Under the pieces are notes generated by a model. It did no database searches. It saw nothing but the letters and a program-made list of their open reading frames with translations, and was not told the DNA's origin. Position numbers and translations under genes: made by a program. Below, piece by piece: positions 2,109-31,616 of a stretch of DNA of 64,000 bases (its first letter is position 1; every line of letters starts with the position of its first letter). Source of the DNA: an uncultured Methanosarcinales archaeon (GTDB lineage Archaea > Nanobdellota > Nanobdellia > Woesearchaeales > CAZPJY01); assembly GCA_964587045.1 (NCBI GenBank), contig CAZPJY010000004.1, forward strand, positions 699 through 64,698, written 5' to 3'.

Positions 2109-3175
2109 TGGATTTCCCGACTAATCCTTTTTATGAATGTAGATACGCTGAAATTTAACGCCTGTCTCTCGCAACTCCTCCGACACGACTTTGTATCCAG
2201 GGATTTGAGTGTCGCACATATTTTATTAGGGGATATATCCTTTATCAGCATCCCTGTCTCGCCGTCAATCACGGATTCTTTGTATCCTCCCTCACATGGG
2301 GCAATGACGGGCTTGCCTGAGGCCATCGCTTCCACCGCGGTCATGCCGAAATCCTCGTCTTTGGCAGTTGTGATGAAACCTTCACACCTGGCATAAAGGC
2401 TTACGAGTTTTTCAAAGCTGACATGGTTCAGGAAATTGACGTTTGAAGGGGCAATCCTCTTGATATAGGATGAATATTCCTTAAAATGCCTCGATTCCTC
2501 ATACGAGCCAACTATTATCAGTTTTTGGTCAGGCATCCTACGGAAGGCCTCCACTTGCATCTCCACTCGCTTGGGCGATACAAGACGGTTCACACTCAGC
2601 CAGTAGCCCCTACTCCTCTCATGATGGAATAAATCGGTTTCGACCGGCGGGTGGATAACCTTTGACTTCCTGCCAAGGAACTTTCTAACCCGTTGTCTCG
2701 TGTTCTCAGAATTGCACACAATTTTTGTGACATGCTTCACATAATCCTTGTTCAGGCGCCGGTTCCATCTCACCCAGACATCAAATACAGGTCTTGCGAT
2801 TGGCGGGACGAGATTATTCCGCGTGTATAAATACAGGTCCCAAATCTCCCGAATTGGGGAATGTACGTACCACATATTAGGCTTGTTGTTGACAGCTCCG
2901 GACACTGCCCAATCACCGCTAATTATGTAGTAATCGTATTCCTTTTCAAGTTTAAGTGTCCTGAAACGCCAAAGCGCCAGCTGCTGCCTGAAAGGAGCAT
3001 TAATTGGTATCCATCCGAGAGTCTTGACTTCCTGAGAAAAACCCATCCTCCTGATCTTCTGAGCGTCAGCTACAGTGGAGAAGACATCAGCCCCAAGCTC
3101 TCTTCCGAGAGTCAAGCTCACCCTCTCTGCTCCCCCAATATTGTCCAAGTAATTGTGAAAGACGGCTATTGGCAT
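2105..3175 (-). CDS. Glycosyltransferase family 4 (group 1)
   Basis: C-terminal EGFGMTAVEAMASGKPVIA motif typical of GT1/GT4 enzymes. Overlaps the GT2 start by 4 nt. Confidence 0.8.
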   Translation of the reverse strand: MPIAVFHNYLDNIGGAERVSLTLGRELGADVFSTVADAQKIRRMGFSQEVKTLGWIPINAPFRQQLALWRFRTLKLEKEYDYYIISGDWAVSGAVNNKPNMWYVHSPIREIWDLYLYTRNNLVPPIARPVFDVWVRWNRRLNKDYVKHVTKIVCNSENTRQRVRKFLGRKSKVIHPPVETDLFHHERSRGYWLSVNRLVSPKRVEMQVEAFRRMPDQKLIIVGSYEESRHFKEYSSYIKRIAPSNVNFLNHVSFEKLVSLYARCEGFITTAKDEDFGMTAVEAMASGKPVIAPCEGGYKESVIDGETGMLIKDISPNKICATLKSLDTKSCRRSCERQALNFSVSTFIKRISREIQ

Positions 3176-3204
3176 GAAACACCCCCATGCCCCACACTTG
3201 AACA

Positions 3205-3250
3205 GGATATTTATAAATTTCGCTTATTCGCGTAATTTTTATATAACAGG
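3205..3250. promoter_or_regulatory. AT-rich divergent promoter region with TATA-like boxes (tttataaattt and ttttatata)
   Basis: The ttttatata box ends about 26 nt upstream of the asnS ATG at 3271. A second TATA-like box faces the minus-strand GT4 gene. Confidence 0.4.
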
Positions 3251-3270
3251 CTCACAACCCTGATGTTCCT

Positions 3271-4572
3271 ATGGGAATATACATGCAAATAAATGATGCC
3301 ATCAAGAAGGGCACTGGTAAAGACGTCGCCATCCGCGGTTGGGTTTGGCGCGAGCGCGGCTCGAACAAGCTGCGCTTCATCACGGTGCGCGACTCGACGA
3401 ATGTCATCCAGTGCGTGGTCGTAAAAGACGAGGTTTCGCCCGAAGTGTGGGAGACCGCACAGAAGACGCCCATCGAGACCTCGCTGAAGGTCACGGGCAC
3501 TCTCCGCGAGGACAAGCGCGCGCCGACTGGCTTCGAGATCGGCGTGAAGGCTATAGAAATCGTGGGCGAGAGTGACACTTATCCCATCACCAAGGACCAG
3601 AGTCCAGAGTTCCTGCTGGACAAGAGGCACCTGTGGATCAGGAGCAGGAAGCTCACAGCGGTAATGAAGGTCAGGAGCACAGTCACCGGCGCAATCCACG
3701 AGTTCTTCAGGAGCAGGGGATATTACGAGTTCACTCCCCCCATATTCACGCCGAACGCCTGTGAGGGCGGCTCGACCCTGTTTGAGGTGAAGTACTTCAA
3801 CGAAAAGATTTACCTCACACAGAGCTGGCAGCTGTACGCTGAAGCCGCCATATTCGCGCTCGAGAAGATCTATGACGTCTCACCCACATTCAGGGCAGAG
3901 AAATCTAAGACCTCTAGGCACCTCACGGAGTTCTGGATGGCTGAGATGGAGGCCGCATGGATGGACCTCAAGGAGGTCACGGAAGTGGCCAAGGAGGAGA
4001 TCAGGTTCATCATCAGGAAGGTGCTCGAGAAGAACGAGGCCGAACTTCGGTTCCTTGGACAGGATGTCGAGAAGCTAAAGCTGGTAGCAGAGAAGGACTT
4101 CCCGACCATAACCTACACTGAAGCTCTGAAAATCCTCAAGGAGAAGTCCAAGATGGATGTGGAGTGGGGCAAGGACCTGAGAACCGTCGAGGAGGACAAG
4201 CTGATGGAGCACTTCGATACGCCTGTCGTCGTGGTTGAGTACCCAAAGGAGGTCATGGCTTTCTACAAGCCCGCAGACCCAAAAGACCCAAAGACCGCGC
4301 TCTGCTTCGACATGATCGCGCCTGAGGGCTACGGCGAGATTATCGGCGGCTCACAGAGGGATACGGACCTCAAAGCGCTGATGGATGGCTTAAAGAAGGA
4401 GGGTGAGCCTATCGAGAACTACGACTGGTACCTTGACCTGAGGAGGTACGGCTCTGTTCCCCATTCAGGCTACGGGCTGGGAGTGGAGAGGGTTGTGTCG
4501 TGGCTTTGCAAGCTTGACAACATCAAGGATGCGATACCGTTCCCCAGGACCATGCTGAGGAAATCCCCATGA
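3271..4572 (+). CDS. asnS: Class IIb aminoacyl-tRNA synthetase, most consistent with asparaginyl-tRNA synthetase (archaeal AspRS not excluded)
   Basis: Motif 2 FRAEKSKTSRHLTEFWMAEME matches the AsnRS-like EFWMxExE pattern. Motif 3 GGSQRD...GYGLGVERVVSWL...IPFPR is also present. The N-terminal OB anticodon-binding domain is recognisable. Confidence 0.6.
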   Translation: MGIYMQINDAIKKGTGKDVAIRGWVWRERGSNKLRFITVRDSTNVIQCVVVKDEVSPEVWETAQKTPIETSLKVTGTLREDKRAPTGFEIGVKAIEIVGESDTYPITKDQSPEFLLDKRHLWIRSRKLTAVMKVRSTVTGAIHEFFRSRGYYEFTPPIFTPNACEGGSTLFEVKYFNEKIYLTQSWQLYAEAAIFALEKIYDVSPTFRAEKSKTSRHLTEFWMAEMEAAWMDLKEVTEVAKEEIRFIIRKVLEKNEAELRFLGQDVEKLKLVAEKDFPTITYTEALKILKEKSKMDVEWGKDLRTVEEDKLMEHFDTPVVVVEYPKEVMAFYKPADPKDPKTALCFDMIAPEGYGEIIGGSQRDTDLKALMDGLKKEGEPIENYDWYLDLRRYGSVPHSGYGLGVERVVSWLCKLDNIKDAIPFPRTMLRKSP

Positions 4573-5501
4573 GGCTTATGCAAAACCCTTCGAAGGAGGC
4601 GCGTATGCATACCGCCGAACACATCCTCTTCAGGGCTCTCCAGCTCCAGGATGAGCAGGTCAAGCTGGACAAGATCAAGCTGGGAGAAGACGAGAGCTCC
4701 TTTTACATATCATCTGAAAATCTCGACTGGGAAAAGGTCCTCAAGGCTGAGGAACAGGCAAACAGGATAGTGGACGAGAAGAGGAAAGTGTCTGAAGAGC
4801 AGGTCCCGAAAGCCGAAGCGGCGAAGATGAAAGAGCTTCGCATAAAGCTCGAGAGGATAAAGGAAAACACGGTGCGCGTGATAAGGATTGAGGATTACGA
4901 CCTCTCAGCCTGCTCCGGCGACCACTGCGCAAGCACAGGACTGGTCGGCAACATCTTGGTCACGAGGTTCAACTCGATGGGCGGCGGCAGGTACCAGGTC
5001 AGGTACAAGATCGGCGCGCTGAGCGACCTGTACGAGATGGCCGGGGTTGCGAGGCTGGCTTCGGAGGCTCTCGGCACGGAGATGGGGCATGTCACCAAGG
5101 CCCTTCGCAACCTAATAAGTGACGAGGAGAACTACAGGAACAGGTACAGGGAGCTCTCAAAGGATGCCATAAAGGAGGTCAACAGGGAAAAGGTAGGCAC
5201 GGTGGACCTCATACACAGCGTCTATGAAGATCTGGAGCACAAGCAGCTCGTCGAGAGCGCCGGACAGCACGCATCGGACTCAACGGTGGTATGCTTCTTC
5301 AACAAGAAGCGGGACCAGGCACAAGTCATTATCAGCACCAAGCATCCAAAACTGCGGGCAGACGAGCTCCTGAAGATAGTCTTCGAGCTAGGCGGCAAAG
5401 GCGGCGGCAGGGAGAACTTCGCGATGGGGAGCGTGGGACTAGACCATATTGAGACGGTCCTATCTGAGATCAAGCGCATCATCAGCGAGACTATCCGTTG
5501 A
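4569..5501 (+). CDS. alaX: AlaX-M type alanyl-tRNA editing protein (AlaRS editing domain plus DHHA1 domain)
   Basis: Zn-binding motifs HTAEH and CSGDHC, plus a C-terminal GGKGGGR DHHA1-like motif. The start overlaps the asnS stop (ATGA). Confidence 0.65.
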   Translation: MRLMQNPSKEARMHTAEHILFRALQLQDEQVKLDKIKLGEDESSFYISSENLDWEKVLKAEEQANRIVDEKRKVSEEQVPKAEAAKMKELRIKLERIKENTVRVIRIEDYDLSACSGDHCASTGLVGNILVTRFNSMGGGRYQVRYKIGALSDLYEMAGVARLASEALGTEMGHVTKALRNLISDEENYRNRYRELSKDAIKEVNREKVGTVDLIHSVYEDLEHKQLVESAGQHASDSTVVCFFNKKRDQAQVIISTKHPKLRADELLKIVFELGGKGGGRENFAMGSVGLDHIETVLSEIKRIISETIR

Positions 5502-6306
5502 GGTATGAGAATATAGGATCCTCCATCTTCACAAGGCTTTCTATGGTGGCCTTGAATCTCTTGACATCATCGCCGAAGTATAATGCCCTGATCTCAGTCC
5601 CCTTCTCCGCAACTCCCATCATAATGCTCATGAAGCTGATGGGGTTCATGACTGTGTTGCCCTTCAGGAGCCGTGCCTCGTCTATCTCATACCCTGAAAA
5701 AGCCTTGACGACGTGAGCTATGGGCCTCATGTGCAGTCCGTCCTTGTGTGTGACTATGAGGTCTATTGCCGCGTTGGCTTTCTTCATGAGCATTTCAGCT
5801 TCGTAATCGTAGTTTTGGTATTCGATAACCTCACCCAGGTTGCTTGCCATCTCGTCTAGGACCTTCTTTACCTTGTGGTGGCCTTTTGGGTTCTTAGCAT
5901 ATAGCTTCAATAGCTCATGCTTGGTGAAAGGCCCTGCGGCCTCCCATTGGCTGGGGCTGCGGGGATCAAAAGCGAACCTGTTTGAAAGTCCCACAAGGTC
6001 TATCTCGGGATACTTGTCAGCAATCCCAGCCATTATGTGGTACTCCACCTCCTCAAGGTTGTGGTTCAGAATCACATCCATCTGAGAATAGTCATGCAGT
6101 ATCACTTCGAGAACGTCACCAATCTTTTGGGTCGGTATAGTCCGCCTGCAGTGTTCACAGTTACTTATCGCTTCAGAGCAGTCGTGCCCCTTGTCAATGA
6201 GGCTGGTGAAGACATCGACTAGTTCGGGACTCTCCTGCATCAGTTTTCGAGCGTTTGCCTTGATGCGTTCGTCAGTAATCCTAAGCTTTTTGAATAGCTC
6301 TTCCAT
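5491..6306 (-). CDS. Fusion protein: N-terminal domain of unknown function (about 185 aa, CxxC...CxxC) plus C-terminal HPr-like phosphocarrier domain
   Basis: The C-terminal about 85 aa align to HPr: GLHMRPIAHVVKAF versus the GLHxRPAAxFVK active-site His15 region; ISFMSIMMG versus the KSIMG Ser46 region; and a terminal ...LVKM. Confidence 0.55.
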   Translation of the reverse strand: MEELFKKLRITDERIKANARKLMQESPELVDVFTSLIDKGHDCSEAISNCEHCRRTIPTQKIGDVLEVILHDYSQMDVILNHNLEEVEYHIMAGIADKYPEIDLVGLSNRFAFDPRSPSQWEAAGPFTKHELLKLYAKNPKGHHKVKKVLDEMASNLGEVIEYQNYDYEAEMLMKKANAAIDLIVTHKDGLHMRPIAHVVKAFSGYEIDEARLLKGNTVMNPISFMSIMMGVAEKGTEIRALYFGDDVKRFKATIESLVKMEDPIFSYLNG

Positions 6307-8503: not shown

Positions 8504-9466
8504 TTAGAAGGGGAAGTAATCGTATTTGTAGGTCTCGGTAATCCTGAGGATGTCGAAGTCGCGGATGATGGTAGAAAATTTTTTTCTGATATCAGCAAGT
8601 ATTGTGTAGAGTTCATCCTCATTTTCGGCCTCTACCTCTATTTCCAAATCCCAGGAGCCAATGAGCTTCAGGAATTGCGTGGCTTTTCTATGCTGGTCTA
8701 GGTAGGCTTTCAAAGCGCTCTCTGACTGGTCGTCGAAGTTCTTGGTCCTGAGAATGATCTTGTAATGATTAATACCGACGTTTTGAAGGTTAAGGTAACA
8801 GCGGTACTGGACGATGATTCTATCTTTGACGAGTTTTTTGAGGCGGTAGGTGACGACGTCCCTTGTGAGATTTGTTTTTTTGGAGAGATCGACGATGCTA
8901 ATACGGGCGTCAGTTGAGAGGATTCTGAGGATTTCCCGGTCAGTGTCATCTAATGAGTAGCGTGTGGCAGGCTTGCCGTATGTGAAGGGTGCAGAAGGGG
9001 TGTCAGTCAAGTATTTTCTGGCGAAGACGGGAGAGTACTCGGTTAAAAGGACATCCTTCTCGAGGATGAATCGTGCATAGAGCTTCATGAACTTGCTGAG
9101 CGATTGTCCGAAATCAAAGTTCGAGGTGGTGAGCAGGGAGACAGCCAAGTCCCACTTGCCGCGGATCTGGGCGACCCATACTGCGGCGTGGTCGTTTATC
9201 CAGTAATCGACGATGTTTTTCTCATCTTCGAGGGTGGTGTCCTGGAACTTGAAGTAGATCTTGTATTGTGAGTAGCCGAGCCTGGTGAAATCGATGATGG
9301 TGTAGTATTCGAAGATGATTTTGTTCTTATGAAGACGTTTGAGCCGGTATTCGACCGCGGGCTTGCTGAGGCCGACCCTCTTTGCGATCTGGGTGTTGGA
9401 GAGCCTTGCATTCTGGTCCAAGAGGGAGAGGATTTTCTTGTCCTTGAGGTCAAGTCTATGGAGCAT
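8504..9466 (-). CDS. Lrp/AsnC-family transcriptional regulator with two tandem HTH-AsnC plus RAM modules
   Basis: Two repeats of the pattern DxxDxKILxxLxxxARxSxxxIAKxxGLSxxxVxxRLKxL, each followed by a ligand-binding RAM-like region. 320 aa. Confidence 0.75.
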   Translation of the reverse strand: MLHRLDLKDKKILSLLDQNARLSNTQIAKRVGLSKPAVEYRLKRLHKNKIIFEYYTIIDFTRLGYSQYKIYFKFQDTTLEDEKNIVDYWINDHAAVWVAQIRGKWDLAVSLLTTSNFDFGQSLSKFMKLYARFILEKDVLLTEYSPVFARKYLTDTPSAPFTYGKPATRYSLDDTDREILRILSTDARISIVDLSKKTNLTRDVVTYRLKKLVKDRIIVQYRCYLNLQNVGINHYKIILRTKNFDDQSESALKAYLDQHRKATQFLKLIGSWDLEIEVEAENEDELYTILADIRKKFSTIIRDFDILRITETYKYDYFPF

Positions 9467-12403: not shown

Positions 12404-13609
12404 TCATTTCTCAACATTCAGTATTTTGAATGCCTCTGTCATCAGGCGCCTCTCAAAAGTCTCCCTGGTCTCACCCTCAGCCTTGTCGCTGTCGAGAGAG
12501 GCGAGGAGCGAACGCGTGGCCTGCTCCTCCTCGATACCTGGAAGCTCCTTTTGCCCGAGGTGCTCCCTAATGAGCTTTGCCTCAAGCTGCTCGACCGACT
12601 GCTCGCTCACAGATATCTCCTCAAACTCGGGAGATGTGAGCGCGGTAGTGTTCCTGGCGACGAAATAAGCTCCCCGCTCGTACGCGCGGTCGAAAATGGA
12701 TTTGAGCTTGAGGTCTGCCGTACTCCCCCCAGCCAGCCTTCCTGCGAGCCGGATAAGCACTATCGCACCGCTGACCTCCTTCCCTTCAAGCAGGGAAGAA
12801 AGCTTCCTGTCCACCTCTTCAGGTGTCATGTTTTCGCACCCCATGCTAACCGCGACCACGGGATGGAGCACAATCCTCACCGTTTCGACCTTCCCTTCCT
12901 CGTACATGTTGAAGCTGCCGCACTTGAGCTTCTCCATCTCAGCGAAGTTGTTAGGGAAAACCGGTCCTGGGTAGGCGATCGTCCCGTAGCCGGGCTCGTC
13001 TGTCTTGAACACGTAGTGCACGTGGCCTCCAGCGTAGTAGTCGAAGCCCTTGGGCAGCAGGGAGAGCGGCGCAGAGTCCATCCCCTCAAGCTCAGCAGGC
13101 TTGAACTCAGTGAGCGCGGTGTGGAACATGAAGATCTTGAAGCCCTCCTCAGACTCGAGGCTGCTCCGGTCGAGCTTCTCGTAATAGCCCCTCTCGAGCG
13201 TCCCTTTCTTGCCTATCATACCTGTGATTTTCGCTCCGCTCGGGTCCGAGGTAAACCTCAGTCTGAGCACTCCGTCTTCAACCTCGCCGCGGACCACGTT
13301 CCTTACCAGGCCAGCCTCCTCAAGCACGTCAATCATGGTCTTGCCCGTCGGCGAGAAGTCGTGGCTCCCTGCGATGATGTAGACCGGAATGCCATTCTTG
13401 GCCAGCCCTTTCAGCACCCTCACAACTGCCTTGAGCCTGTCGATCGCCGGAAGGGACGTGTTGAAGAGGTCCCCGGAGATGAGGATGAACTGAGCCTTTC
13501 GCTCCAGGGCGATCCTGACGGCTTCCTTGAAGGACCTGAGCCCCAGCTCGTTCATACGCGGGTCGCGCCAGCCACCGATGTGGCAGTCAGCCATGTGCGC
13601 AAACCTCAC
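12404..13609 (-). CDS. mre11: Mre11 DNA double-strand-break repair nuclease (calcineurin-like phosphoesterase)
   Basis: Phosphoesterase motifs [10 protein letters not shown] (I), SGDLFN (II), GSHD (III), and H plus GGHVHY (V), in Mre11-type spacing. The start overlaps the herA stop. Confidence 0.8.
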
Positions 13610-15231
13610 TTCTTCACACCCTCAAAGCTCATCGTGTCACGCTGGTAGTCCTCTTTCGTGTACTCCTTGGCCTTCTTGGCGACGCTCTTATTCTGCGTCT
13701 CGATCACCAGGTCCTCGAAGAGCGGAACCTTGATGGGCATCGCGAACTTGGCGAAGTTGGACGACACCAAAGCCTCCCCTATGTCCAGCGCGGCGATCGT
13801 CCTGGAATCGTCTGAGAGGTCCTGCGGGGATGATTCGATGACTGCCTGGCGCTCAGCCGCCATCTCCAGGCCCAGGATGATCTTGGTGTTCATGTTCGCG
13901 AGGATTGCTTTTGGTATGAGGCTGGGGAGCTGGGTAATCGCAACCAGGCCGACCTTGAACTTCCTGCCCTCACGCGCGATGGCGGCGAAGATGTTGCTCC
14001 CCCTCTCCAAGACCTCCTTGCCAAGCACCCTCGGAGCCTCCTCGAGCACCACCGATATGACCGGTTTGTCTCCCAGCAGCCCTCCCATCTTGTAGCGCCT
14101 GTACCTCCTCATCACCTCGTTGCATATTATCGACCCTATCAGGATCTCGACCGCGCCTGAGAAGCTTGAGGTGTCGACCACCACGACCTTGCAGTCCTCG
14201 AGGTCCGAGACTATGTCTGGGACGGTGCTCCCTCCGGCCTTAAGGTCGAAGACGCCATGCGCCGTGAGGCGGTTGTTGGCAAACGTCAGGTCCAGCAGGT
14301 GGAGCATCCTCCTTCGCACAACGGCGAGGGTGCCTTCGAAGAAGTCGACCTTGAGTGGCTTCTGCAGGACCAGCGCCTCGATCCACGCGTTGCCGTGCTC
14401 TGTGTAGTAAGCGTTGATGGCCTGCTGCTGTGCGTCAGACCAGTCGACCACGCCCTCGAAGTGGTGCGGCCTCAGGGTGGACAGGTTGATCTTGAGCGAT
14501 CGCGCCCCTGACGGCGGCTCGTTGGGCGTGCAGTACACGACACCGCCGGAGGGGTGGTCCTTGAACCCCTTGCCGTTCCGCCCGTAGTACTCGTCATGCG
14601 GATCCAAGACGAGGATCCCTGCGTATCCCCTGCCTATCATGCCCCACACCATCGACTTGGTGAGGTTGCTCTTGCCCCTCCCTGTCGTGGCGGGTATCAG
14701 CACGTGATGTGTGAGGACGGCGACGCCGGGCAGCGCGATGTCCACATCGATGGCCTTGGAGCCGCTCCTGAGCTTGCCCAGCCTCAACGGGTCCGAAGGC
14801 TCGGTCAGGAACGCCAGGTCCTCCTTTTCGATGGCCCTGACCTTTGAGAAGAATGGGGGAAGCGACTTGGTGATGGACACGGTCTGGCCCAGGGTGATCA
14901 GGGGCTTTGCGTAGGCGACAGTGTAGTTCCTCAGCTCGGCATCCATGAAATCGAGGTTTCCCTGCTGCTCCAGCTCCATGCCCGAGATCAGCTCCAGGCT
15001 CTGGGATGAGAGCTGGCTGCCGTACCTAACATCGAACACCTGCAGGATTACCCTGCCGCTGTCAGAATCATTGACCAGCAGCTCACCTATCTCGATTCTC
15101 TCGCCATCCTTCTGCCTGATGGATATCTTGCCCAGCTCCCCGCTGATAATCTGCCCCTTCAACGCTCCATCCTCCTTATCTGGCTGATCTCGTCGCGGGA
15201 GATCGAGCAGCCGTTGAGCTTGACGCCCCAC
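13606..15231 (-). CDS. herA: HerA helicase (FtsK/HerA-superfamily ATPase)
   Basis: Walker [32 protein letters not shown] and [15 protein letters not shown] all match HerA signatures, with an N-terminal HAS-barrel-like region. The N-terminal about 24 codons overlap the upstream ORF, so the true start may be internal. Confidence 0.8.
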
Positions 15232-15908
15232 AGCACGCTCTCGAGAAGCACGTTCTGCAGGTCAGGGATGATTTTCTCCTCCTTTGCCATGACATACCTG
15301 TTCAGCAGTCCAAGCTCGTACGCTACAGTCACCAGCTCAGCGCTCCTGATGACCCTGATACCCTTTGTGAGCCGTCTGAACCTCTTGAGGGATTCTTGGT
15401 CGATCCTCACGTCGCATTTCAGCTTCCTGCTCATCCAGTGCGCGAGCTCGTCAGGGTCCTCCAGCAGTTCCCGGGCCGTACGCTCGTCGATCACAACAGC
15501 CTTGGCCTTGAGGAAGACAGCTGTTGCGATTACCTCCATCTCGGCCGGGTGGACCAAGGTCAGGTAGCGGTCCCTGGCCTTGAGGAGGTGATTGCCAAGG
15601 GTCAGTATCTCATCAAGGATTGGCTTGACCTTTTCTGCGTTGTAGACCTTGAGCGATCCATCAAGGATGTACGGTATCATCTGGAGGGCCTCGAACTTGT
15701 ACTTCTTGGTGGTCAGAGGCCTGTCGATCAGCTCTGCCCTGACCCGGGGAGTGATCAGGAACTGCCCGGGGAAGTATTTGTTGAGCGGGTTGATCAGCCA
15801 GGTGAGGTTGTTCATCGTGAGGCTGATTAGGGGGCCGGTGTCAAAGACAATGGTCTCGCCCTGGACGTCGTGGACGGTTATGTTCTCCCATTCAGGCCGC
15901 ACGGTCAC
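15159..15908 (-). CDS. PIN-like domain protein (COG2405-like predicted nuclease); a NurA substitute cannot be excluded
   Basis: [11 protein letters not shown]...ITPRVRAEL...[30 protein letters not shown] resembles PIN-domain acidic-residue strands. It sits immediately upstream of herA and overlaps it. Confidence 0.35.
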
Positions 15909-16467
15909 CCCTCCTGAAAAGCTTGCGGGCGAACGCGACCCTTGCAGGGGTGTGCTTCCCTGACTCAGTCGAGTCTGCTATGCTGGTCTTGCCGACATAG
16001 TTCATGAGCTCCCACTGGGTGACGCCCATCAGCTCAGCAGTCTGGCCCATGGATAGGCCGTGCTCGTACAGCCTGCTGCCCTTCTTGATCTGCGCCTCCT
16101 CAAGGACGTGCATGACGTAAGGCCGGAGCTTCTTGTCCCTGTCGGCTATGTGGTCGAGCACCTTCTTCATCGCAGCCCTGTAGCCTGCCACATCCTTGGC
16201 CCCGAGGTGGCTCTTGGCCGACCTGAGCTCTGAGAGGAAGGCATCCCTGTCCTTGCCCCGCGTCCTGGTGAAGGATTTTGACAGGGCGTAAACCACCACT
16301 GCGAACTTCAGCGAGTCTGCGTCCTGGAAGATGGAAGCGTTGTGGATGGTGTGGTCTGAAAGCTCCGCCAGCCTGAGCACATCCTCGTCCTCTACCGCTT
16401 TTAGGACCTCAGAAACCAGGTAATTCAGGTCATCCTCAACCATCCTATGCGAAAACTCTTCAGCCAC
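15892..16467 (-). CDS. Hypothetical protein with a C-terminal HTH-like segment
   Basis: GLSMGQTAELMGVTQWELMNYV resembles a sigma-70 region 4 / LuxR-type HTH. Overlaps the PIN-like gene start by 17 nt. Confidence 0.3.
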   Translation of the reverse strand: MAEEFSHRMVEDDLNYLVSEVLKAVEDEDVLRLAELSDHTIHNASIFQDADSLKFAVVVYALSKSFTRTRGKDRDAFLSELRSAKSHLGAKDVAGYRAAMKKVLDHIADRDKKLRPYVMHVLEEAQIKKGSRLYEHGLSMGQTAELMGVTQWELMNYVGKTSIADSTESGKHTPARVAFARKLFRRGDRAA

Positions 16468-16552
16468 GAAAACACCCCGTCTGGCTGTCGGCGTCGCGCG
16501 TATTTAAACCTTCCGCAAAAGCTTAATAAATAGTGAGGATACCGGAAGGGGC
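16468..16552. promoter_or_regulatory. Divergent promoter region with BRE/TATA-like elements (cgcgtatttaaacc and ttaataaata)
   Basis: An 85-bp intergenic region between the divergently transcribed herA-cluster operon and the MCM-like gene, with two TATA-like boxes in opposite orientations. Confidence 0.4.
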
Positions 16553-17743
16553 ATGGCAGAGAGGAGATTCTCAGACTTGCTTAGGCTGTTGAGGAGCCTG
16601 TCTAAGAAGGAGCAGGTCCTAATCGCAGCTGTCAGCCAGCACCTCGAGCCTCCTGACCTCTCAAGGGTCAGAAAGCTCCTCAAACAACGCAAGGTGAAGC
16701 TGTTCTACGAGACCCTCGGCATCTCTGACAAGTTTTTCAGCACGCAGGAATATCCCCAGCTGGACCCCCAGGAAGGGCTGGACGATGAGATGAAGAAGTG
16801 GGTGCGTCTCATCAACAAGAAAATCCGCGCCGATGTCGAGGAGAAGGCGTTCGCCGCCTTTGCAAAGATAGCCAAGGAGACCATCCCGCTGTTCATAGCC
16901 CCTGACATCGTCGGCCTCGACACCATCAAGCAGGCAGCAGCCTTGCAGCTGTTCTCAACAGAGAGGTTCCACATCCTCCTGCTCGGGGACCCTGGCACAG
17001 GGAAGACCGACATCATCAGATCGGCAGCTCAGCTCGCGCCTATAAGCGCTTTCGGGCTGGGCTCAGGCGCCACCAAGGCAGGCCTGTCCATGACCTACAA
17101 GGGAGGCAAGGCTGAGCCTGGCCTGCTACCCTTGGCAGACCAGGGGCTGTGCGCCATAGACGAGCTCAACCTGATGAAGGAGGCTGACCGCGCCGCGCTC
17201 TACAACGCGATGGAGAAGGGTTTCGTCTCCTACCACAAGGCCGGCAAGAACGACACGATGGACGCCCGCATCAGCGTGCTGGCGACAGGGAACCCGAAAG
17301 GCGACAGGTTCGTCGGCAGGGTGGTTGATGTCCTCAGGAGCCAGCTGCCCTTCGATTCCGCGCTGCTGACCAGGTTCCACCTGGTATTCCTCGTGCGCAA
17401 GCCAGACATCAAGAGGTTCCTCGAGATCACGAAGCGGATCGTCACGTCCGACATCCCGAAGAGGCCGAACGACTCCGCATTCGTCAAGAACTACATCTCC
17501 TACGCAAGAGACCTCAATGTGGAGTTCCCCAGCTCGTTCGAAAAGCAGGTGGTGGCATTCGCCAGGTCTCTTAAGGAGCGGGAAAAACAGTTCATAGTCG
17601 AGATATCCCCCAGGATTGTCGTCGGCATCATCAAGCTCGCCAAGGCCTCAGCCAGGATGGAGCTGCGAGACAAGGTCACGATACAGGACCTCAACAGCGT
17701 ATTCAGGATTGTCGAGGAGAGCCTGGTCGTCAAGAAAGATTAA
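16553..17743 (+). CDS. MCM-family AAA+ ATPase lacking the canonical MCM N-terminal OB/Zn domain (mini-MCM)
   Basis: Walker A ILLLGDPGTGKTD; Walker B CAIDELNLM. ADRAALYNAMEKGFVSYHKAGKNDTMDARISVLATGNP aligns with the MCM [21 protein letters not shown]...ARTSILAAANP block. Arg-finger region LLTRFHLVFLV. Only 396 aa. Confidence 0.7.
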   Translation: MAERRFSDLLRLLRSLSKKEQVLIAAVSQHLEPPDLSRVRKLLKQRKVKLFYETLGISDKFFSTQEYPQLDPQEGLDDEMKKWVRLINKKIRADVEEKAFAAFAKIAKETIPLFIAPDIVGLDTIKQAAALQLFSTERFHILLLGDPGTGKTDIIRSAAQLAPISAFGLGSGATKAGLSMTYKGGKAEPGLLPLADQGLCAIDELNLMKEADRAALYNAMEKGFVSYHKAGKNDTMDARISVLATGNPKGDRFVGRVVDVLRSQLPFDSALLTRFHLVFLVRKPDIKRFLEITKRIVTSDIPKRPNDSAFVKNYISYARDLNVEFPSSFEKQVVAFARSLKEREKQFIVEISPRIVVGIIKLAKASARMELRDKVTIQDLNSVFRIVEESLVVKKD

Positions 17744-17771
17744 TAAATAGTACTTTTATTCTGTGAGCCTT

Positions 17772-18095
17772 ATGCATGAGCTGACCATATCCCAAGGCAT
17801 AGTCAACGAGGCTAAGAAGCACGGCAACGTCGTATCACTAACAATAGAAGTGGGAGAGCTTGCCGACATCACTGCTGATGAGATCAGATCCTCACTGAGC
17901 AGGCTGGTGGATTGGGACGTTCAAATCAAGAAAAATCCGGGGAAAGTCGCCTGCTCATGCGGGTACACAGGAAAGCCGAAAATCGTGGAGCGCGGCCACG
18001 GCTACGTGATTTTCGAGTGCCCGAAATGCGGCAAGACCCCTGCAGTGATAGAGGGCAACCAGATAATCCTAGTGGAGCTGGACGTCAAGGAGTGA
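17772..18095 (+). CDS. hypA: Hydrogenase nickel-insertion protein HypA
   Basis: MHELTISQGIV N-terminus plus a C-terminal CxxC...CPKCG zinc motif (CSCGY...FECPKCG). A TATA-like ttaataaata lies upstream. Confidence 0.75.
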   Translation: MHELTISQGIVNEAKKHGNVVSLTIEVGELADITADEIRSSLSRLVDWDVQIKKNPGKVACSCGYTGKPKIVERGHGYVIFECPKCGKTPAVIEGNQIILVELDVKE

Positions 18096-19043
18096 GTACT
18101 CCTCCGAGCCCATGCCGAGCCTCGCAGCAGCCCGAACGTGTTCTAAGCCACCCTTCTTGTTCGCCTTGAGGAAGACGTCAGTACCCACAAGGTCTGCGGC
18201 AGCCTTGTCGATGGCGACACCATCCTCCCCCGCGAAGTACCCGGCGTCCTCGGCTATGACTTCTCCCGGGTTCCTCTCGCAGTCGCAGAGCTTGGAGATG
18301 TTGACAGCCAATGAGATGTAGTAGTCCTTCTTGAAGGACTTCTGGGCTGCATAAGCGCCTTCGGCCAGTAGGTCGTCGAAGTATGCCACCGCCGGCTTGA
18401 GTACGCCCGCAGAGCATGCCATGCAGCAGTCCGAGCACCCATAGCACGTCCCGATCTCGGGCTTGTCGGTCAGCTTGATTGAGTTGAGTGGGCAGGCCTC
18501 GACGCATGCCCCGCACTGCGTGCACTCGCCAGTGAGGACCGGCCTGCCCCCGGAGTGGATCGCAGACTTGCTCCTCTTGGTGACAGCTCCCATACCGAGG
18601 TTTTTGATCGCGCCTCCGAAACCTGAGCAGGTGTGGCCCTTGAAATGGCTGATGACCAGGACCCCATCCGCATCGGAGAGCTCCTTGCAGACCTCATAGG
18701 ACATGTGCTCGCCTTCCACGAGCTCGAACTCTTCCCCAGTCCTTATCTCGCCTAGTTGGTCCCAGCCCTTGGCACGCGCTGCGTCTGCGTATGTGTCGGA
18801 CTGGTGCCTTGGGCTGTGGTACGAGACCGGCGAGTCATAGAGGAAATAATCGAATCCCATGTCAGAGAGCATTTCGGTGAAGGGCTTGACCTGCTCAGGC
18901 ACGAGCGCTGTGCGGTTGCCGGGCTCGCCGAAGTGCAATTTGACAGCGATTTTGCTGCAGCCTGAGAATCTCTTCTTGATGTCATCCCCCACAGCCCTCA
19001 TGAATGCTGGGGTCATTTGCTCAGAATGCAACACCTTTGCCAT
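18069..19043 (-). CDS. DUF362-family protein with inserted 2x[4Fe-4S] ferredoxin domain
   Basis: CTQCGACVEACP and CYGCSDCCMACS cluster motifs embedded in a DUF362-like scaffold. Confidence 0.6.
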   Translation of the reverse strand: MAKVLHSEQMTPAFMRAVGDDIKKRFSGCSKIAVKLHFGEPGNRTALVPEQVKPFTEMLSDMGFDYFLYDSPVSYHSPRHQSDTYADAARAKGWDQLGEIRTGEEFELVEGEHMSYEVCKELSDADGVLVISHFKGHTCSGFGGAIKNLGMGAVTKRSKSAIHSGGRPVLTGECTQCGACVEACPLNSIKLTDKPEIGTCYGCSDCCMACSAGVLKPAVAYFDDLLAEGAYAAQKSFKKDYYISLAVNISKLCDCERNPGEVIAEDAGYFAGEDGVAIDKAAADLVGTDVFLKANKKGGLEHVRAAARLGMGSEEYSLLDVQLH

Positions 19044-19118
19044 GCGAAGTGAAAAAGCACGGACGTTTTTAATTCTTTTGCCGCAAAGCTTTTATTCACG
19101 CCGGCCATCCGGGTTAGC

Positions 19119-19499
19119 ATGCTCAAGGTGCTCGCTTTCGGAAACACCCTTCACCAGGAGGACAAGGTTGCGATAGACATCGCCAGGGAGCTGACCATCC
19201 CGGGCGTCGTGTTTTCCGAGTGCCACTCCCTCGACCAGGCACTTCAGGCTGCGAGGGGTGACACCATAATACTAGACGTAGCCAGGGGGATAGACAGAGT
19301 TATGCTTATAGATGACCTGGACAGGATAAAAGCTCGGCACCTCTACAGCCTCCACGACTTCGATCTTGGCTACTTCCTCAAGCTGATGCAGAGCATGGGA
19401 TCTTTGGACAGCGTGAGGATTCTCGCGCTGCCTTACGGACGCGCGTCCCACGAGGTCATCGACGAGGTTGCTCAGGTTCTGCGCTCCCTGGTCGAGTAG
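19119..19499 (+). CDS. Hydrogenase maturation endopeptidase (HycI/HybD family)
   Basis: MLKVLAFGNTLHQEDKVAIDIAREL matches the hydrogenase maturation protease N-terminal signature (GNxLxxDDGxG). About 126 aa. Confidence 0.6.
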   Translation: MLKVLAFGNTLHQEDKVAIDIARELTIPGVVFSECHSLDQALQAARGDTIILDVARGIDRVMLIDDLDRIKARHLYSLHDFDLGYFLKLMQSMGSLDSVRILALPYGRASHEVIDEVAQVLRSLVE

Positions 19500-19536
19500 A
19501 AAATTTTATATAGGCAGCGACCATTGGGTTCAGTGG

Positions 19537-20484
19537 ATGGGGAAGGTTATTCCGAAAGCTGATTTCAACAGGTGGCTTCGCAAGCTTTCTAGGAAATACG
19601 AACTGATCGGGCCTGTCAAGTCAGACCTGGTTAGATACTCGAATTTTGAGAGGCTCGAGGACCTGGAGCTGAGCGAGCTGCCCTACTACTCCTTCAAGCG
19701 GTACTTCTTCCCGCCCAAAGAGGAGCTCTTCTCATTTTCGAAAGACAGGGTGAAGCTTCCAAAGGTCAAGGCGCAAAGGAGGATCATCATAGGCGCTCCC
19801 CTAGCTGACATCAACGCCTTGAGGGTGATGGACAAGATATTCCTCGGCGACTACAAGGACGAAGGGTACGCCGAAAGGAGGAAGAACACGCTGCTGGTGG
19901 GATACGCCGACTTCCAGCCTGACGAGTACTGCTTCTCCAGCTCGTTCGACCAGGAGCCCTGCTACGACCTGATGCTCCACGAAAAAGGTGACAGCTTCTA
20001 CGTCGAGGTCGGCAGCGAAGCGGGACGAAAGCTAGTCCGAGGATTCAAGGAAGGCCAAGCCCCGAAGAAGAAGAAAATGGTCTTCCAAAAGAAGCTCGAG
20101 GTAAAGGACATCAAAGCCCACTACGACAGCCCCAAATGGGACAAGGAGGCAGAAAAATGCCTCGGCTGCGCCGGCTGCACCATCATTTGCCCAACCTGCG
20201 CGTGCTTCAACGTCTTCGACGACGCCAACTTCGACTTCATATCCGGAACTCGGTTCAAGGAGTGGGAGACGTGTGACGCCAAGAACTTCACGACGGTCGC
20301 GGGCAACTTCGCATTCAGGGATGACAGGTCGTCGAGGATGAAGCACAGGATATACCACAAGATGGTCTATTATCATGACTCCTTCGGAGGCTACATGTGC
20401 GTCGGCTGCGGCAGGTGCCTGCGCGTATGCCCTGTGGGCATAGACTTCGTCAAGGTATCTAACTCATTCAAGAGGAAAAAATGA
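19537..20484 (+). CDS. hydB: Sulfhydrogenase (group 3b [NiFe] hydrogenase) beta subunit, 4Fe-4S protein
   Basis: CLGCAGCTIICPTCACFNV and CVGCGRCLRVCPVG cluster motifs, collinear with Pyrococcus HydB. The start is set at the ATG at 19537, about 25 nt downstream of a ttttatata TATA box. The listed ORF begins at 19468. Confidence 0.75.
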   Translation: MGKVIPKADFNRWLRKLSRKYELIGPVKSDLVRYSNFERLEDLELSELPYYSFKRYFFPPKEELFSFSKDRVKLPKVKAQRRIIIGAPLADINALRVMDKIFLGDYKDEGYAERRKNTLLVGYADFQPDEYCFSSSFDQEPCYDLMLHEKGDSFYVEVGSEAGRKLVRGFKEGQAPKKKKMVFQKKLEVKDIKAHYDSPKWDKEAEKCLGCAGCTIICPTCACFNVFDDANFDFISGTRFKEWETCDAKNFTTVAGNFAFRDDRSSRMKHRIYHKMVYYHDSFGGYMCVGCGRCLRVCPVGIDFVKVSNSFKRKK

Positions 20485-21272
20485 GCGGGAAGGAATACGA
20501 ACCAAGACAGGTAGAGATCCTCAAGGTCGTCGACGAGACGCCTGATACCAAGACATTCAGGCTTAAGACGAGGATCAATCTGCTGCCCGGCCAGTTCGTC
20601 GAGGCCAGCGTGCTCGGCATCGGAGAGGCGCCGATATCCAACTGCTCTTACAACGGAGAATTCCTCGAGCTCATGATACGCGATGTCGGGAATGTCACGC
20701 ACGCGATCCACCAGCTCAAGGCAGGAGACAAGCTGTGGATACGAGGCCCGTACGGGCACGGCTACCCGATGGAGGAGATGAAGCACAAGAACATCCTGGT
20801 CGTGGCTGGCGGCACAGGCGCTGCCCCTCCCCGCTCAGTGCTGCAGTATGTTGAGCATCACAGGAGAGACTACGGCGACGTGAGGGCGATCATAGGATTC
20901 CGGAGCCCAAAAGACCTCATATTCAAGTACGATTTCGAGAGGTTCTCGCGTCTGTTCGACTTCACAGTGACCGTCGACAAGGGAGACGACACCTGGAATG
21001 GAAAGGTCGGGCTGGTGACCCAAATACTCGAAGAGAAGAAGGTGCCTGCCCAGAACACTGCCGTGGTGACGTGCGGACCGCCGATAATGATCAAATTCGT
21101 CATACAATCGCTGAAGAAGCTCGGTTTCTACGACAGCCAGATCTACGTGAGCTACGAGAGGCACATGCGCTGCGGGCTTGGGCACTGCGGCCACTGCATC
21201 TTCAGCGACAAGTACATATGCAAGGACGGGCCGGTGTTCCGGTACGACCAGGTCAAGGAGTTGCATGACTGA
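20481..21272 (+). CDS. hydG: Sulfhydrogenase gamma subunit (FAD/NAD(P)-binding, 2Fe-2S)
   Basis: A ferredoxin-NADP reductase-like fold with GGTGAAP and a C-terminal CGLGHCGHC cluster motif. Confidence 0.75.
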   Translation: MSGKEYEPRQVEILKVVDETPDTKTFRLKTRINLLPGQFVEASVLGIGEAPISNCSYNGEFLELMIRDVGNVTHAIHQLKAGDKLWIRGPYGHGYPMEEMKHKNILVVAGGTGAAPPRSVLQYVEHHRRDYGDVRAIIGFRSPKDLIFKYDFERFSRLFDFTVTVDKGDDTWNGKVGLVTQILEEKKVPAQNTAVVTCGPPIMIKFVIQSLKKLGFYDSQIYVSYERHMRCGLGHCGHCIFSDKYICKDGPVFRYDQVKELHD

Positions 21273-29074: not shown

Positions 29075-29470
29075 ATGACAATGACTGAAGAGAAGAAAAA
29101 CAATCTTGCTAACTACGTCATGACATCGTTTTTCAGCGCACTCGTTGGAGCAGCGCTGGCCAGCGGGTACTTTTACTTGAACCAGAGAAGCGGCTCAGAC
29201 CTGGAGATCACCATCGAAAATCCGATAGTGCAGATAAAGGACCAGGGCAAGGTAATCAAAGGAAAAGCCCCCCTGAGCGAGAGCAGAAACATCCTCGATT
29301 TATTCACCGGGCACAGGGCTGACAAGTGGATCAAGTTCGAGGACGAAGGTTACATAATCTACTGGGATTACAACAACGACGGGAAATACGACAGGTACAA
29401 GTCCGTCTACAAGCAGGGGTCCATCGAAGAGAAATTCAAGGAAATCCAGACTGACAGCACCGGACGCTAG
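29075..29470 (+). CDS. Small membrane-anchored protein, paralog 3 of 3
   Basis: TM helix followed by KGKAPLSESR...NNDGKYDRY. The start is set at the ATG at 29075, just after the paralog 2 stop. Confidence 0.4.
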   Translation: MTMTEEKKNNLANYVMTSFFSALVGAALASGYFYLNQRSGSDLEITIENPIVQIKDQGKVIKGKAPLSESRNILDLFTGHRADKWIKFEDEGYIIYWDYNNDGKYDRYKSVYKQGSIEEKFKEIQTDSTGR

Positions 29471-30639
29471 CGGACCAGCGTGACAGTCTCCTTGGCTATC
29501 TCAAGCTCCTCGTTCGTCGGGATGACGAACACCTTAACTTTCGAGCCCTTGGCAGATATGACTCTGGCGTTGCGCCTGTTGGCATTGGCGTCTAACCTCA
29601 CTCCCATATGCTTAAACCTTGACAGGACCTTAGCTCTGGTACCCCACTCATTCTCGCCTATGCCTCCAGTGAATACGATGCAGTCCAGGCCTTCAAGAAC
29701 GGTCGCATAGGCACCGATGAAGAACGCTATCCTGTAGGCGAGCATGTCAAGAGCGAGCTCTGCCCTATCATTTCCCGATTTGGCTGCCTGGACCAGCTCC
29801 CGGACATCCGAGCTGATGCCAGAGATGCCCTTGAGGCCTGATTTCTTGTTGAGATAATTGGACAGCTCGTCCGGTTTGAAGTGTTTCTTCTTAATGAGGT
29901 ATATGGGAATCTCAGGGTCCAGCTCTCCACTTCGAGTGCCCATGATCAGCCCGTCCAGCGGTGTGAATCCCATGGTCGTGTCAACGCTCTTCCCGTCCTT
30001 TATCGCCGTGATTGACGAGCCGTTCCCGAGATGGCAGGTGATCATCTCGTGGCTCTTGCGCTTGAGCATCTTGGCCGCCTCGCGGCTGACGTATTTGTGG
30101 GAGGTACCATGGAAGCCGTATTTCCTTATCTTGTATTTCTGGTAGAGCTCGAGGGGTATGCCATAAAGGTAGGCCTCCTCCGGGATGGTCTGGTGGAATG
30201 CTGTGTCGAAGACGGCCACCTGCGGCACCTTGGGCATCACCTTCATGCACGCTTTGATACCTGCAAGGTTTGGGGGGTTGTGGAGGGGTGCAAGCTCGAA
30301 GAGCTCCTTGATGCGCTTGATGACCTCACCGTCGATTAGCGTCGGTCCATGATAGTATTCCCCGCCGTGCACGACTCGGTGGCCAACAGCCTTGATGTCA
30401 TCGATGTCCTCAAGCACCTTTGATCTTATCAGAAATTCCAGGGCGAAATGAACCGCCTCTGCGTGGTCCTTTATCAGCTCCTTCTCCTCTACCTTCTTGT
30501 TGCCGTACGATAACTTCACCGTGCACCGGTCCAGTCCGATGCCATCGACATGCCCCTTGAAGAGGAGAGCCCCTTCCGGCATCTCCAGAAGCTGGTATTT
30601 CAAGGAGCTTGATCCTGAGTTCAGGACGAGGACCTTCAC
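29467..30639 (-). CDS. ackA: Acetate kinase
   Basis: (M)KVLVLNSGSSSLKYQL N-terminus and other acetokinase motifs. The probable GTG start at 30637-30639 overlaps the pta TGA (GTGA). The listed ORF extends to an ATG at 30705. Confidence 0.8.
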   Translation of the reverse strand: MKVLVLNSGSSSLKYQLLEMPEGALLFKGHVDGIGLDRCTVKLSYGNKKVEEKELIKDHAEAVHFALEFLIRSKVLEDIDDIKAVGHRVVHGGEYYHGPTLIDGEVIKRIKELFELAPLHNPPNLAGIKACMKVMPKVPQVAVFDTAFHQTIPEEAYLYGIPLELYQKYKIRKYGFHGTSHKYVSREAAKMLKRKSHEMITCHLGNGSSITAIKDGKSVDTTMGFTPLDGLIMGTRSGELDPEIPIYLIKKKHFKPDELSNYLNKKSGLKGISGISSDVRELVQAAKSGNDRAELALDMLAYRIAFFIGAYATVLEGLDCIVFTGGIGENEWGTRAKVLSRFKHMGVRLDANANRRNARVISAKGSKVKVFVIPTNEELEIAKETVTLVR

Positions 30640-31616
30640 CTTCCCACCGCCTGAGCCTGAATCACTGTTATGGCCGTTATCCCGTAAACGTCGTCGACTG
30701 AGCACCCTCGGGAGAGGTCGTTGACAGGCCTTCTGATGCCCTGGATTATGGGACCAAGGGAGGTGACCTGGCCGATTCTTTGTGTTATCTTGTAGGCAAT
30801 GTTGCCAGCGTCCAGGTTGGGGAATATGAAGACGTTTGCCTTCCCCCCAATTGGGGAATCAGGGCATTTCTTCTGGGCCACTTTCTCGACGTATGCTGCA
30901 TCGAACTGCAGCTCCCCGTCAAGCAGTAGGTCCGGGGCGCGCTCCTTTGCAATCCTGGTCGCCTCGACGACCTTGTCGACCATGGGGTGCTTGGCGCTTC
31001 CGTGCGTCGAGAAGGAAAGCATCGCAACCCTGGGTTCGATGCCGAAAAACTTGGCCGATTCAGCGGTTGCGAGAGCGATGTCGGCGAGCTCCTCAGGATT
31101 GGGATCAATGACAAACCCGCAATCTGCATAGAACATCAGTCCCTGATCGGATATCTCGAAGAAGAAGCTCGATGCAAGCTTCCTCCCCTCAGCGGTCTTG
31201 AGTATCTGAAGCGCAGGCCTAAGCGTGTGGGCTGTGGGATGGGAAGCACCGGATATCAAGCCGTCAGCCTCACCCAGATGGACCATCATGGTCCCCCAAT
31301 AGATTGGCTCTGCAACCATCTTCCTTGCGTCGTCGATTAGTGCTAGCTTGCCCTTGCGGAGCTCCATGAACTCCTTGGCAAAGCTCTCCACGTCGCCTTT
31401 GGCTGGATCCACTATCTGGATGTCACCGAGGTCGAGATTGAGCGAGGCTGCCTTGGCCCTCGTAGTCTCTTCAGGACCCACGAGTATTGGGACAGCTATG
31501 CCATCATTCTTCACGCGCAGGGCTGCCTTGAGAATGCGTTCGTCCTCAGTTTCTGGGAATACTATGCGCTTTGGCTCCTTGCGAGCTTTCTCGATTAGAT
31601 TGGACAGGAAATCCAT
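30636..31616 (-). CDS. pta: Phosphotransacetylase (short, about 326 aa form)
   Basis: N-terminus MDFLSNLIEKARKEPKRIVFPETEDERILKAA and conserved Pta core. Translationally coupled to ackA. Confidence 0.8.
   Translation of the reverse strand: MDFLSNLIEKARKEPKRIVFPETEDERILKAALRVKNDGIAVPILVGPEETTRAKAASLNLDLGDIQIVDPAKGDVESFAKEFMELRKGKLALIDDARKMVAEPIYWGTMMVHLGEADGLISGASHPTAHTLRPALQILKTAEGRKLASSFFFEISDQGLMFYADCGFVIDPNPEELADIALATAESAKFFGIEPRVAMLSFSTHGSAKHPMVDKVVEATRIAKERAPDLLLDGELQFDAAYVEKVAQKKCPDSPIGGKANVFIFPNLDAGNIAYKITQRIGQVTSLGPIIQGIRRPVNDLSRGCSVDDVYGITAITVIQAQAVGR

Follow-up and report, generated by a model that had tools for sequence, protein, structure and literature searches.

A DPANN family of short MCM-type ATPases with its own N-terminal domain and recurrent DNA-repair neighbours

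A stretch of 64,000 nucleotides of archaeal DNA (positions 699 to 64,698 of contig CAZPJY010000004.1, GenBank assembly GCA_964587045.1; hereafter the window) encodes a 396-amino acid member of the MCM family of AAA+ ATPases, which we call sMCM, for short MCM. sMCM represents a widespread and previously undescribed MCM subfamily, specific to the DPANN archaea, whose N-terminal domain is novel and whose AAA+ core is remodelled. From its sequence features and gene neighbourhood we propose, with moderate confidence, that sMCM is a lineage-specific MCM paralogue that would serve as an auxiliary motor in recombination, in fork restart or in the repair of breaks.

sMCM is an MCM family member, belonging to the AAA+ clade that has a helix-2 insert and a pre-sensor-1 hairpin. 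The MCM motifs pointed out in an earlier, sequence-only reading of the window were all found in the translated open reading frame (ORF): GDPGTGKT at residues 145–152, IDELNLM at 202–208, DRAALYNAMEKGFVSYHKAG at 212–231, ARISVLATGNP at 238–248 and TRFHL at 273–277. The MCM-type AAA+ core that this reading assigned to the protein was confirmed by Pfam, by sequence matches in the PDB and by Foldseek. The Pfam MCM P-loop domain (PF00493) matched residues 109–297 with an E-value of 3.3e-37 (128.2 bits, cut-off 23.3) and MCM_lid (PF17855) matched residues 310–391 with an E-value of 5.9e-11 (43.1 bits, cut-off 27.4), and there was no Pfam match to MCM_N or MCM_OB (PF14551/PF17207). The NCBIfam whole-protein MCM model NF040949 gave 164.6 bits, below its cut-off of 940, and was aligned only over model positions 281–592. 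The best relative of solved structure was Saccharolobus solfataricus (Sso) MCM (E = 2e-31), with alignment confined to sMCM residues 88–387 and chain residues 264–587. Other top sequence matches in the PDB were to MCM9 (E = 3e-31), an Sso/Pfu chimera and MCM7 (E = 7e-31), and all of the top matches started to align at sMCM residues ~88–140. An AF2 model built on 43 family members had a pLDDT of 92 and a pTM of 0.89. The best 50 Foldseek matches of this model in the PDB were all MCM chains, with E-values of ~1e-23 for MCM2-7 and archaeal MCMs and TM-scores, normalised to the sMCM query, of 0.62–0.68 against archaeal MCM structures.

The catalytic residues of the MCM motor are retained throughout the family. 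In the columns of a 43-member alignment, which we used to define invariance, the Walker A residues K151/T152, the Walker B residues D203/E204, the sensor-1 residue N247, the arginine finger R274 (in TRFHL, an SRFD-type motif) and the sensor-2 residues P353/R354 do not vary. Lys-229 is likewise invariant and aligns with the pre-sensor-1 hairpin lysine in the IAKAG motif of Sso MCM (K430, a number derived from the alignment). The hairpin itself has the same length as in canonical MCMs, with AF2 strands at residues 224–229 and 232–237. Elsewhere the core has been remodelled. The external β-hairpin just before Walker A is deleted, 10–12 residues being absent at this position in every family member, the helix-2 insert is reduced to a short predicted hairpin (residues 180–189 in the AF2 model) that is 6–8 residues shorter than the canonical insert in all members, and the protein ends 5 residues past the lid, without a C-terminal winged helix. 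Comparison with the archaeal replicative MCMs of Sso (PDB 3F9V, 4FDG and 6MII), Pyrococcus (4R7Y) and Mancarchaeum (8Q67) thus reveals a common AAA+ clade, with P-loop and lid domains, Walker A and B motifs, sensors 1 and 2, arginine finger and pre-sensor-1 hairpin lysine all shared. However, the replicative proteins have ~600–700 residues rather than 396 and possess the A/B(Zn)/C(OB) N-terminal domain, external hairpin and winged helix that sMCM lacks, as well as a longer helix-2 insert. The Walker B context also differs, being DELNLM in sMCM and DE[FLI]DKM in the replicative MCMs.

The sequence-only reading described sMCM as N-terminally truncated, with a helical N terminus in place of the OB-fold and zinc finger. 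The absence of OB-fold and zinc-finger domains is supported by Pfam, but the N terminus is not purely helical: the AF2 model has three helices, a β-hairpin at residues 48–72 and a long helix at 78–110. Nor is truncation an apt description, because the N-domain has been swapped for a family-specific one and the core is itself altered. Residues 1–110 gave no significant fold match, and none to MCM N-domains. The N-domain has a median pI of 9.6 and conserved lysines at positions 37, 40, 44 and 47, and the protein as a whole is basic. In the connecting helix Asn-88 and Ala-107 are invariant and Phe-103 nearly so. A search with the N-domain through 1.84 billion representatives returned 114 matches, located at the N terminus of proteins of ≤430 residues, except for a few weak matches in longer proteins. 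As judged from these sequence comparisons, a conserved small basic domain unique to the sMCM family has taken the place of the MCM N-domain. The possibility that sMCM is one half of a split gene, whose other half would be a nearby ORF for the MCM N-domain, was rejected, as a hidden Markov model (HMM) of canonical N-domains matched no ORF in the window or in loci L001–L086 and L117–L127 from relatives.

When 5.8 billion protein clusters were searched, with family clusters made at 90% identity, 656 matched sMCM. The best 120 are proteins of 384–406 residues (one has 440) that are 47–54% identical to sMCM over the full length and, where named, come from Woesearchaeota or Nanoarchaeota. When one genome per GTDB species was scanned for two near-invariant motifs, relatives were detected in 196 genomes. 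The best 80 of these are mostly titled as metagenome-assembled genomes of Woesearchaeota, Nanoarchaeota and Pacearchaeota; many of the others bear the title “uncultured Methanosarcinales”, which we read as a placeholder, and a few more go only by “archaeon” or “Euryarchaeota SM23-78”. The relatives lie among housekeeping genes on long chromosomal contigs of up to 1.84 Mb, and the set includes one complete Woesearchaeota chromosome of that size (OY970338.1). The AAA+ core is 51–72% identical within the family as against 25–35% identical to MCMs of a mixed set, some canonical and some element-borne. These sequence data indicate a chromosomal family restricted to the Woesearchaeota/Nanoarchaeota of the DPANN archaea, rather than a degraded copy of another MCM, and one that is apparently vertically inherited.

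In the window the sMCM gene is divergent from a run of four genes that we term p191, p249, herA and mre11. Because these genes overlap end to start, they form one operon. The sequence-only reading had sMCM divergent from a herA-mre11 operon across a shared 85-bp promoter. The divergent arrangement is correct, but the gene next across the gap is p191 and not herA. The 85-bp distance applies to p191 as annotated; the true start of p191 is probably the ATG at 16443, which would widen the gap to 109 bp. Two A/T-rich TATA-like boxes, TATTTAAA at ~16501–16508 and TTAATAAATA at ~16524–16533, are putative promoters, and no operator repeats were found in the intergenic region. The p191 protein has a weak Pfam match to the UPF0175 HTH antitoxins (E = 0.013) and is 46% identical to the equivalent neighbour of sMCM in locus L002. 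For p249 the corresponding identity is 48%. The p249 translation contains the acidic motifs FDTGP, AEME and VIDER; its homologues carry PF11848 (DUF3368), and p249 itself matches the PADLOC model PDC-S70 (E = 2e-6). The p249 family comprises 550 clusters confined to Woesearchaeota/Nanoarchaeota, which makes it comparable in size to the sMCM family, with a taxonomic range and identity band that match those of sMCM. The composition of the operon is unusual for a double-strand break repair cluster. Neither Rad50 nor NurA was present among the ORFs annotated across the window or in those clusters of the relatives that were inspected, and the enlarged pair of PIN and helix-turn-helix (HTH) proteins may stand in for NurA as the nuclease partner of HerA.

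Table 1. Position and assignment of sMCM, its domains and other features of the window
Feature	Position	Strand	Description and basis
sMCM	16553..17743	+	Short MCM-family AAA+ ATPase, 396 aa, ATG start; ORF and translation, Pfam, AF2/Foldseek
sMCM N-terminal domain	16553..16777	+	Residues 1–75, family-specific; three helices and a β-hairpin; basic, with conserved lysines
sMCM connecting helix	16778..16888	+	Residues ~78–110, long helix leading into the AAA+ module; AF2, alignments
sMCM P-loop AAA+ domain	16877..17443	+	Residues 109–297; Pfam, 43-member alignment, canonical-MCM alignments
sMCM AAA-lid domain	17480..17725	+	Residues 310–391, with invariant sensor-2 P353/R354; Pfam MCM_lid, 43-member alignment
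Divergent intergenic region	16468..16552		85 bp, TATA-like boxes; sequence read directly
p191	15892..16467	-	Operon gene 1; conserved protein of 181–191 aa, C-terminal UPF0175-like HTH
p249	15159..15908	-	PIN-like (DUF3368) predicted nuclease, 249 aa, C-terminal extension
HerA-type ATPase	13606..15231	-	Pfam PF01935, E = 8e-22; PADLOC HerA, E = 7e-25
Mre11-like metallophosphoesterase	12404..13609	-	Last gene of operon; Pfam Metallophos, E = 6e-13
Housekeeping and metabolic genes	Across 64 kb		Several aminoacyl-tRNA synthetases, GatE, aRF1, RFC-like ATPase; Pfam
Housekeeping and metabolic genes (continued)			Group-3b-type hydrogenase and HypA, 2-oxoacid:ferredoxin oxidoreductase, Ack-Pta, PEP synthase, aldolase; Pfam

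The conservation of this arrangement was assessed in 86 fetched loci from relatives, 82 of them non-redundant, which include 30 species-level loci with ≥8 kb on both sides of sMCM. Genes for p191 and p249 are present in 25 and 24 of the 82 loci, respectively, mostly directly divergent from sMCM, and 19 of the loci encode HerA at most 10 kb from sMCM. For Mre11, BLAST clustering gave 16 of the 82 loci, and phmmer 13 of the 86 fetched loci. The divergent herA arrangement is thus kept in only part of the family: among the 30 long-flank loci, 11 (37%) have p191/p249, 9 (30%) have HerA within 10 kb and 13 have any of the four genes. Since a single-copy gene in a genome of ~1 Mb would be expected to fall in such a region by chance in ~2% of cases, the linkage is far above chance.

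The association between sMCM and the repair genes outlasts rearrangement of the locus. L040 and L068 have HerA directly abutting sMCM. In L063, L071 and L072 the p191-p249-HerA block has moved downstream and is on the same strand, and a 939-kb contig (L136, Ga0612041_0032) repeats the sMCM/p191/p249/HerA arrangement of the window. The linkage is not strict, as two further loci show. L137 and L138 keep p191-p249, HerA, Mre11 and an operon resembling arvABC together. In L137 p191-p249 is only 360 bp from the arvABC-like operon and the sMCM slot is empty, containing two tiny ORFs (9094–9456); in L138 the neighbours are all present, with no sMCM within 10 kb. This pattern suggests that sMCM has been lost or relocated in these genomes. 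A 401-residue gene product encoded between p191 and p249 in L138 was considered as a degenerate sMCM and rejected.

The arvABC-like operon, composed of genes for a small GTPase, OapB (PF09846) and OapC (PF09845), is located directly downstream of sMCM in 22 of the 82 loci, including L009, L010, L013, L014, L029, L052 and L068, and occurs also in L137 (7697–9093) and L138 (4516–5923). GTPase-OapB-OapC corresponds to the ArvABC vesiculation operon of haloarchaea (Haloferax) (PMC10927574). In the window this position is taken instead by a gene for a HypA-like metallochaperone (17763–18095), which begins 20 bp after sMCM. A different context is seen in a separate Woesearchaeota subclade, where nine loci encode a Pol II-like family-B DNA polymerase 3–5 kb upstream of sMCM. 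The polymerase gene of L066 (4890–7205, + strand) matches E. coli Pol II (PDB 1Q8I) with an E-value of 1.5e-149, and equivalent genes are found in L017, L030, L047, L053, L055 and L070. Polymerases of this kind form the bacterial-type B7 group, which has been reported for Woesearchaeota and Pacearchaeota (PMC7544198).

Several other features of the window were recorded. Following the HypA-like gene, the region up to 23346 (from 17763) contains an opposite-strand gene for a DUF362/4Fe-4S protein and a four-gene cluster for a sulfhydrogenase-like, group 3b-type NiFe-hydrogenase. Adjacent acetate kinase and phosphotransacetylase genes are located at 29467–31616 on the - strand (Pfam E-values of 2.5e-149 and 4.5e-126). 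The bacterial-type Ack-Pta route is uncommon in archaea. A 271-residue protein encoded at 5491–6306 on the - strand has a C-terminal phosphotransferase system (PTS) HPr domain (E = 4e-10), unexpected in DPANN archaea, and its first 180 residues have no Pfam match. Two stretches of low GC content, at 1–2 kb (0.45) and 8–10 kb (0.43) as against ~0.53 overall, hold genes for a glycosyltransferase and a double-HTH Lrp/AsnC-type regulator. No RNA family, tRNA included, reached the Rfam gathering thresholds across the window.

Because the ATPase site is intact, the channel lysine is kept and the protein is basic, sMCM is best viewed as a ring-shaped, ATP-driven DNA motor. The complete MCM-type inter-subunit ATPase site suggests that sMCM would assemble into a ring, and this ring would use ATP to translocate along DNA as a translocase or helicase. 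The basic N-domain would target either DNA or a partner protein. In canonical MCMs the OB/Zn collar, external hairpin and winged helix are involved in double-hexamer formation, binding of GINS/Cdc45 and recruitment by Orc1/Cdc6. An auxiliary function in repair or restart is proposed because sMCM has lost these loading elements and because repair-type neighbours occur in two independent contexts. sMCM would then act beside a canonical replicative MCM, not instead of it, and would work with its recurrent neighbours, namely the HerA-Mre11 resection genes, the PIN-like nuclease with its HTH partner and, in a separate subclade, the Pol II-like polymerase.

A parallel for such a function is provided by eukaryotic MCM8-MCM9 (PDB 7WI7 and 8S91), MCM paralogues that act in homologous recombination with the Mre11 complex. 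sMCM would resemble these proteins as a non-replicative MCM paralogue linked to Mre11, a link that for sMCM is one of genomic neighbourhood only. However, MCM8 and MCM9 keep the OB-fold N-domain, which sMCM does not, and there is no MCM8/9-specific relationship in sequence, since sMCM scores alike against Sso MCM (2e-31), MCM7 (7e-31) and MCM9 (3e-31). The parallel is thus a functional analogy only.

A number of observations weigh against the proposed repair role. The loci compared are phylogenetically related, so that there were fewer independent events than the counts imply, and more than half of the long-flank relatives show none of the repair genes. sMCM is divergent from the repair operon and not co-transcribed with it. 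The presence of the arvABC-like operon beside the sMCM slot in 22 loci indicates that part of the synteny may simply reflect history. The short helix-2 insert and missing external hairpin could leave sMCM with poor helicase activity or none. No second MCM was detected in the window and ~100 loci, a sample of ~1.6 Mb that lies entirely near sMCM; chance alone would place only ~1–1.5 canonical copies in such a sample, so the absence of one says little, and a genome with sMCM as its sole MCM would give the same result. Finally, no description of the sMCM family was found in the literature.

The alternative that survives best, although we think it unlikely, is that the gene order is merely inherited and that sMCM functions elsewhere in DNA metabolism, for example as an accessory to replication initiation or the origin. 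The partial linkage and the different contexts in different subclades are compatible with this explanation, as is the proximity in 22 loci of OapABC/ArvABC-type genes, which Pfam describes as origin-associated. Nevertheless, both of the independent contexts bring sMCM together with DNA repair or replication enzymes (HerA/Mre11 in one, the Pol II-like family-B polymerase in the other), and ArvABC has been implicated in vesicle formation rather than replication (PMC10927574). The basic character of the whole protein and the retention of the DNA-contact lysine of the pre-sensor-1 hairpin also speak against this explanation. A variant in which sMCM is an AAA+ remodeller that does not act on DNA is less likely.

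It is improbable, in our estimation, that sMCM is the only MCM of reduced genomes and so a minimal replicative helicase that dispenses with the OB/zinc-finger collar. The lack of a second MCM-like ORF near sMCM and the invariance of every catalytic and pore-loop residue would fit such a role, and “replicative DNA helicase Mcm” is the label that the JGI pipelines give to family members. Archaeal MCMs reduced to the isolated AAA+ module are also known to keep some helicase activity in vitro. On the other hand, the sampled ~1.6 Mb is too small for the missing second MCM to carry much weight, and sMCM is without the N-domain and winged helix that MCMs need to form double hexamers, to bind GINS and to be recruited by Orc1/Cdc6. 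The 196 species genomes with sMCM are, by our estimate rather than by count, a minority of the phylum. There is no sMCM in the slot of L137, nor beside the neighbours in L138. In addition, the core is only 25–35% identical to canonical MCMs, as against 51–72% within the family. The narrower case, in which one Woesearchaeota clade has no MCM besides sMCM, of ~390 residues, and so relies on it as replicative helicase, we judge slightly more doubtful still. If it were true, sMCM would be a natural minimal motor, and origin loading and CMG-type assembly would be fundamentally different in these organisms.

Two candidates for a canonical MCM of Woesearchaeota were examined and rejected. The canonical-length MCM of L128, which came from a metagenome scan (≥19 loci), is Archaeoglobales/Bathyarchaeota-like, and the MCM of L130 lies among small unfamiliar ORFs and has a virus- or plasmid-borne look. 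The L130 protein (Ga0180008_1007228, 2614–4590) and that of L101 (3395–5377) are divergent full-length MCMs encoded among small same-strand ORFs and are probably virus- or plasmid-borne. The L130 MCM has the unusual motifs LDEFEKM and HVPLEQQ, and its Walker A motif, GDPGTGKT, is identical to that of sMCM.

We also give little credence to the suggestion that sMCM, p249, p191 and possibly HerA make up a defence or toxin-antitoxin-like module in which sMCM, as the ATPase motor, would sense or process foreign nucleic acid. PIN(DUF3368)/UPF0175 pairs are classed as toxin-antitoxin-like. The PADLOC matches of p249 (to the candidate system PDC-S70) and of HerA are in keeping with a defence module, L002 and L006 have the p191-p249-sMCM triad without HerA, and in L136 a CRISPR-Cas12a locus is found 8 kb away. 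However, sMCM has no meaningful PADLOC match of its own, archaeal housekeeping HerA also matches the PADLOC models, and the surroundings of the genes are of housekeeping type and do not constitute a defence island. Furthermore, sMCM, p191 and p249 diverge in step (46–53% identity), as do vertically inherited core genes. The L136 locus (18733–20708 on the 939-kb contig, 8 kb from the sMCM cluster) is a type V (Cas12a/Cpf1) CRISPR-Cas system with Cas4-Cas1-Cas2.

The sequence-only reading took sMCM for an out-of-place mini-MCM of the type carried by mobile elements, with no integrase or other element gene adjacent. The latter observation was borne out: Pfam analysis of the ORFs across the 64 kb identified housekeeping and metabolic genes only (Table 1), with no integrase, transposase or virus gene among those annotated. 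The mobile-element assignment did not hold, as sMCM belongs to a conserved chromosomal family that has no relatives among 2.9 million IMG/VR viral contigs. A search of viral contigs with an AT-rich Walker-B DNA pattern gave 29 chance matches and one viral MCM. Phage records in GenBank and plasmid records in PLSDB matched only the AAA+ core (residues ~112–391), at 26–34% identity, and the matching proteins are ordinary full-length MCMs. Non-canonical MCMs of mobile elements are exemplified by BcMCM of a Bacillus cereus prophage, an active helicase that has an MCM AAA+ core and a non-canonical, primase-like N terminus (PMC2715239). BcMCM and the MCMs of archaeal plasmids and tailed viruses share with sMCM the combination of an MCM core and a non-canonical N terminus, but they reside in proviruses or plasmids, whereas sMCM is chromosomal and its N-domain is unrelated to theirs and family-specific. 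Although such prophage and plasmid cores exist, the idea that sMCM is mobile-element or viral cargo with borders beyond the DNA read is largely refuted and highly improbable, given the absence of element genes and of viral-contig relatives, the failure of any plasmid or phage record to cover the N-domain or exceed 34% identity, and the conservation of length and synteny among housekeeping neighbours in at least 196 species.

Archaea and eukaryotes use MCM as their core replication motor, and the N-terminal collar of MCM is held to be integral to loading, double-hexamer formation and processivity. The sMCM family offers a natural experiment on the capability of a bare MCM motor core, that is, an ATPase with a pore loop. 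The label “replicative DNA helicase Mcm” given to its members can mask the true absence or presence of a canonical helicase in surveys of DPANN genomes. By analogy with MCM8 and MCM9 in eukaryotes, our findings suggest that DPANN archaea may likewise have turned an MCM paralogue to repair or restart.

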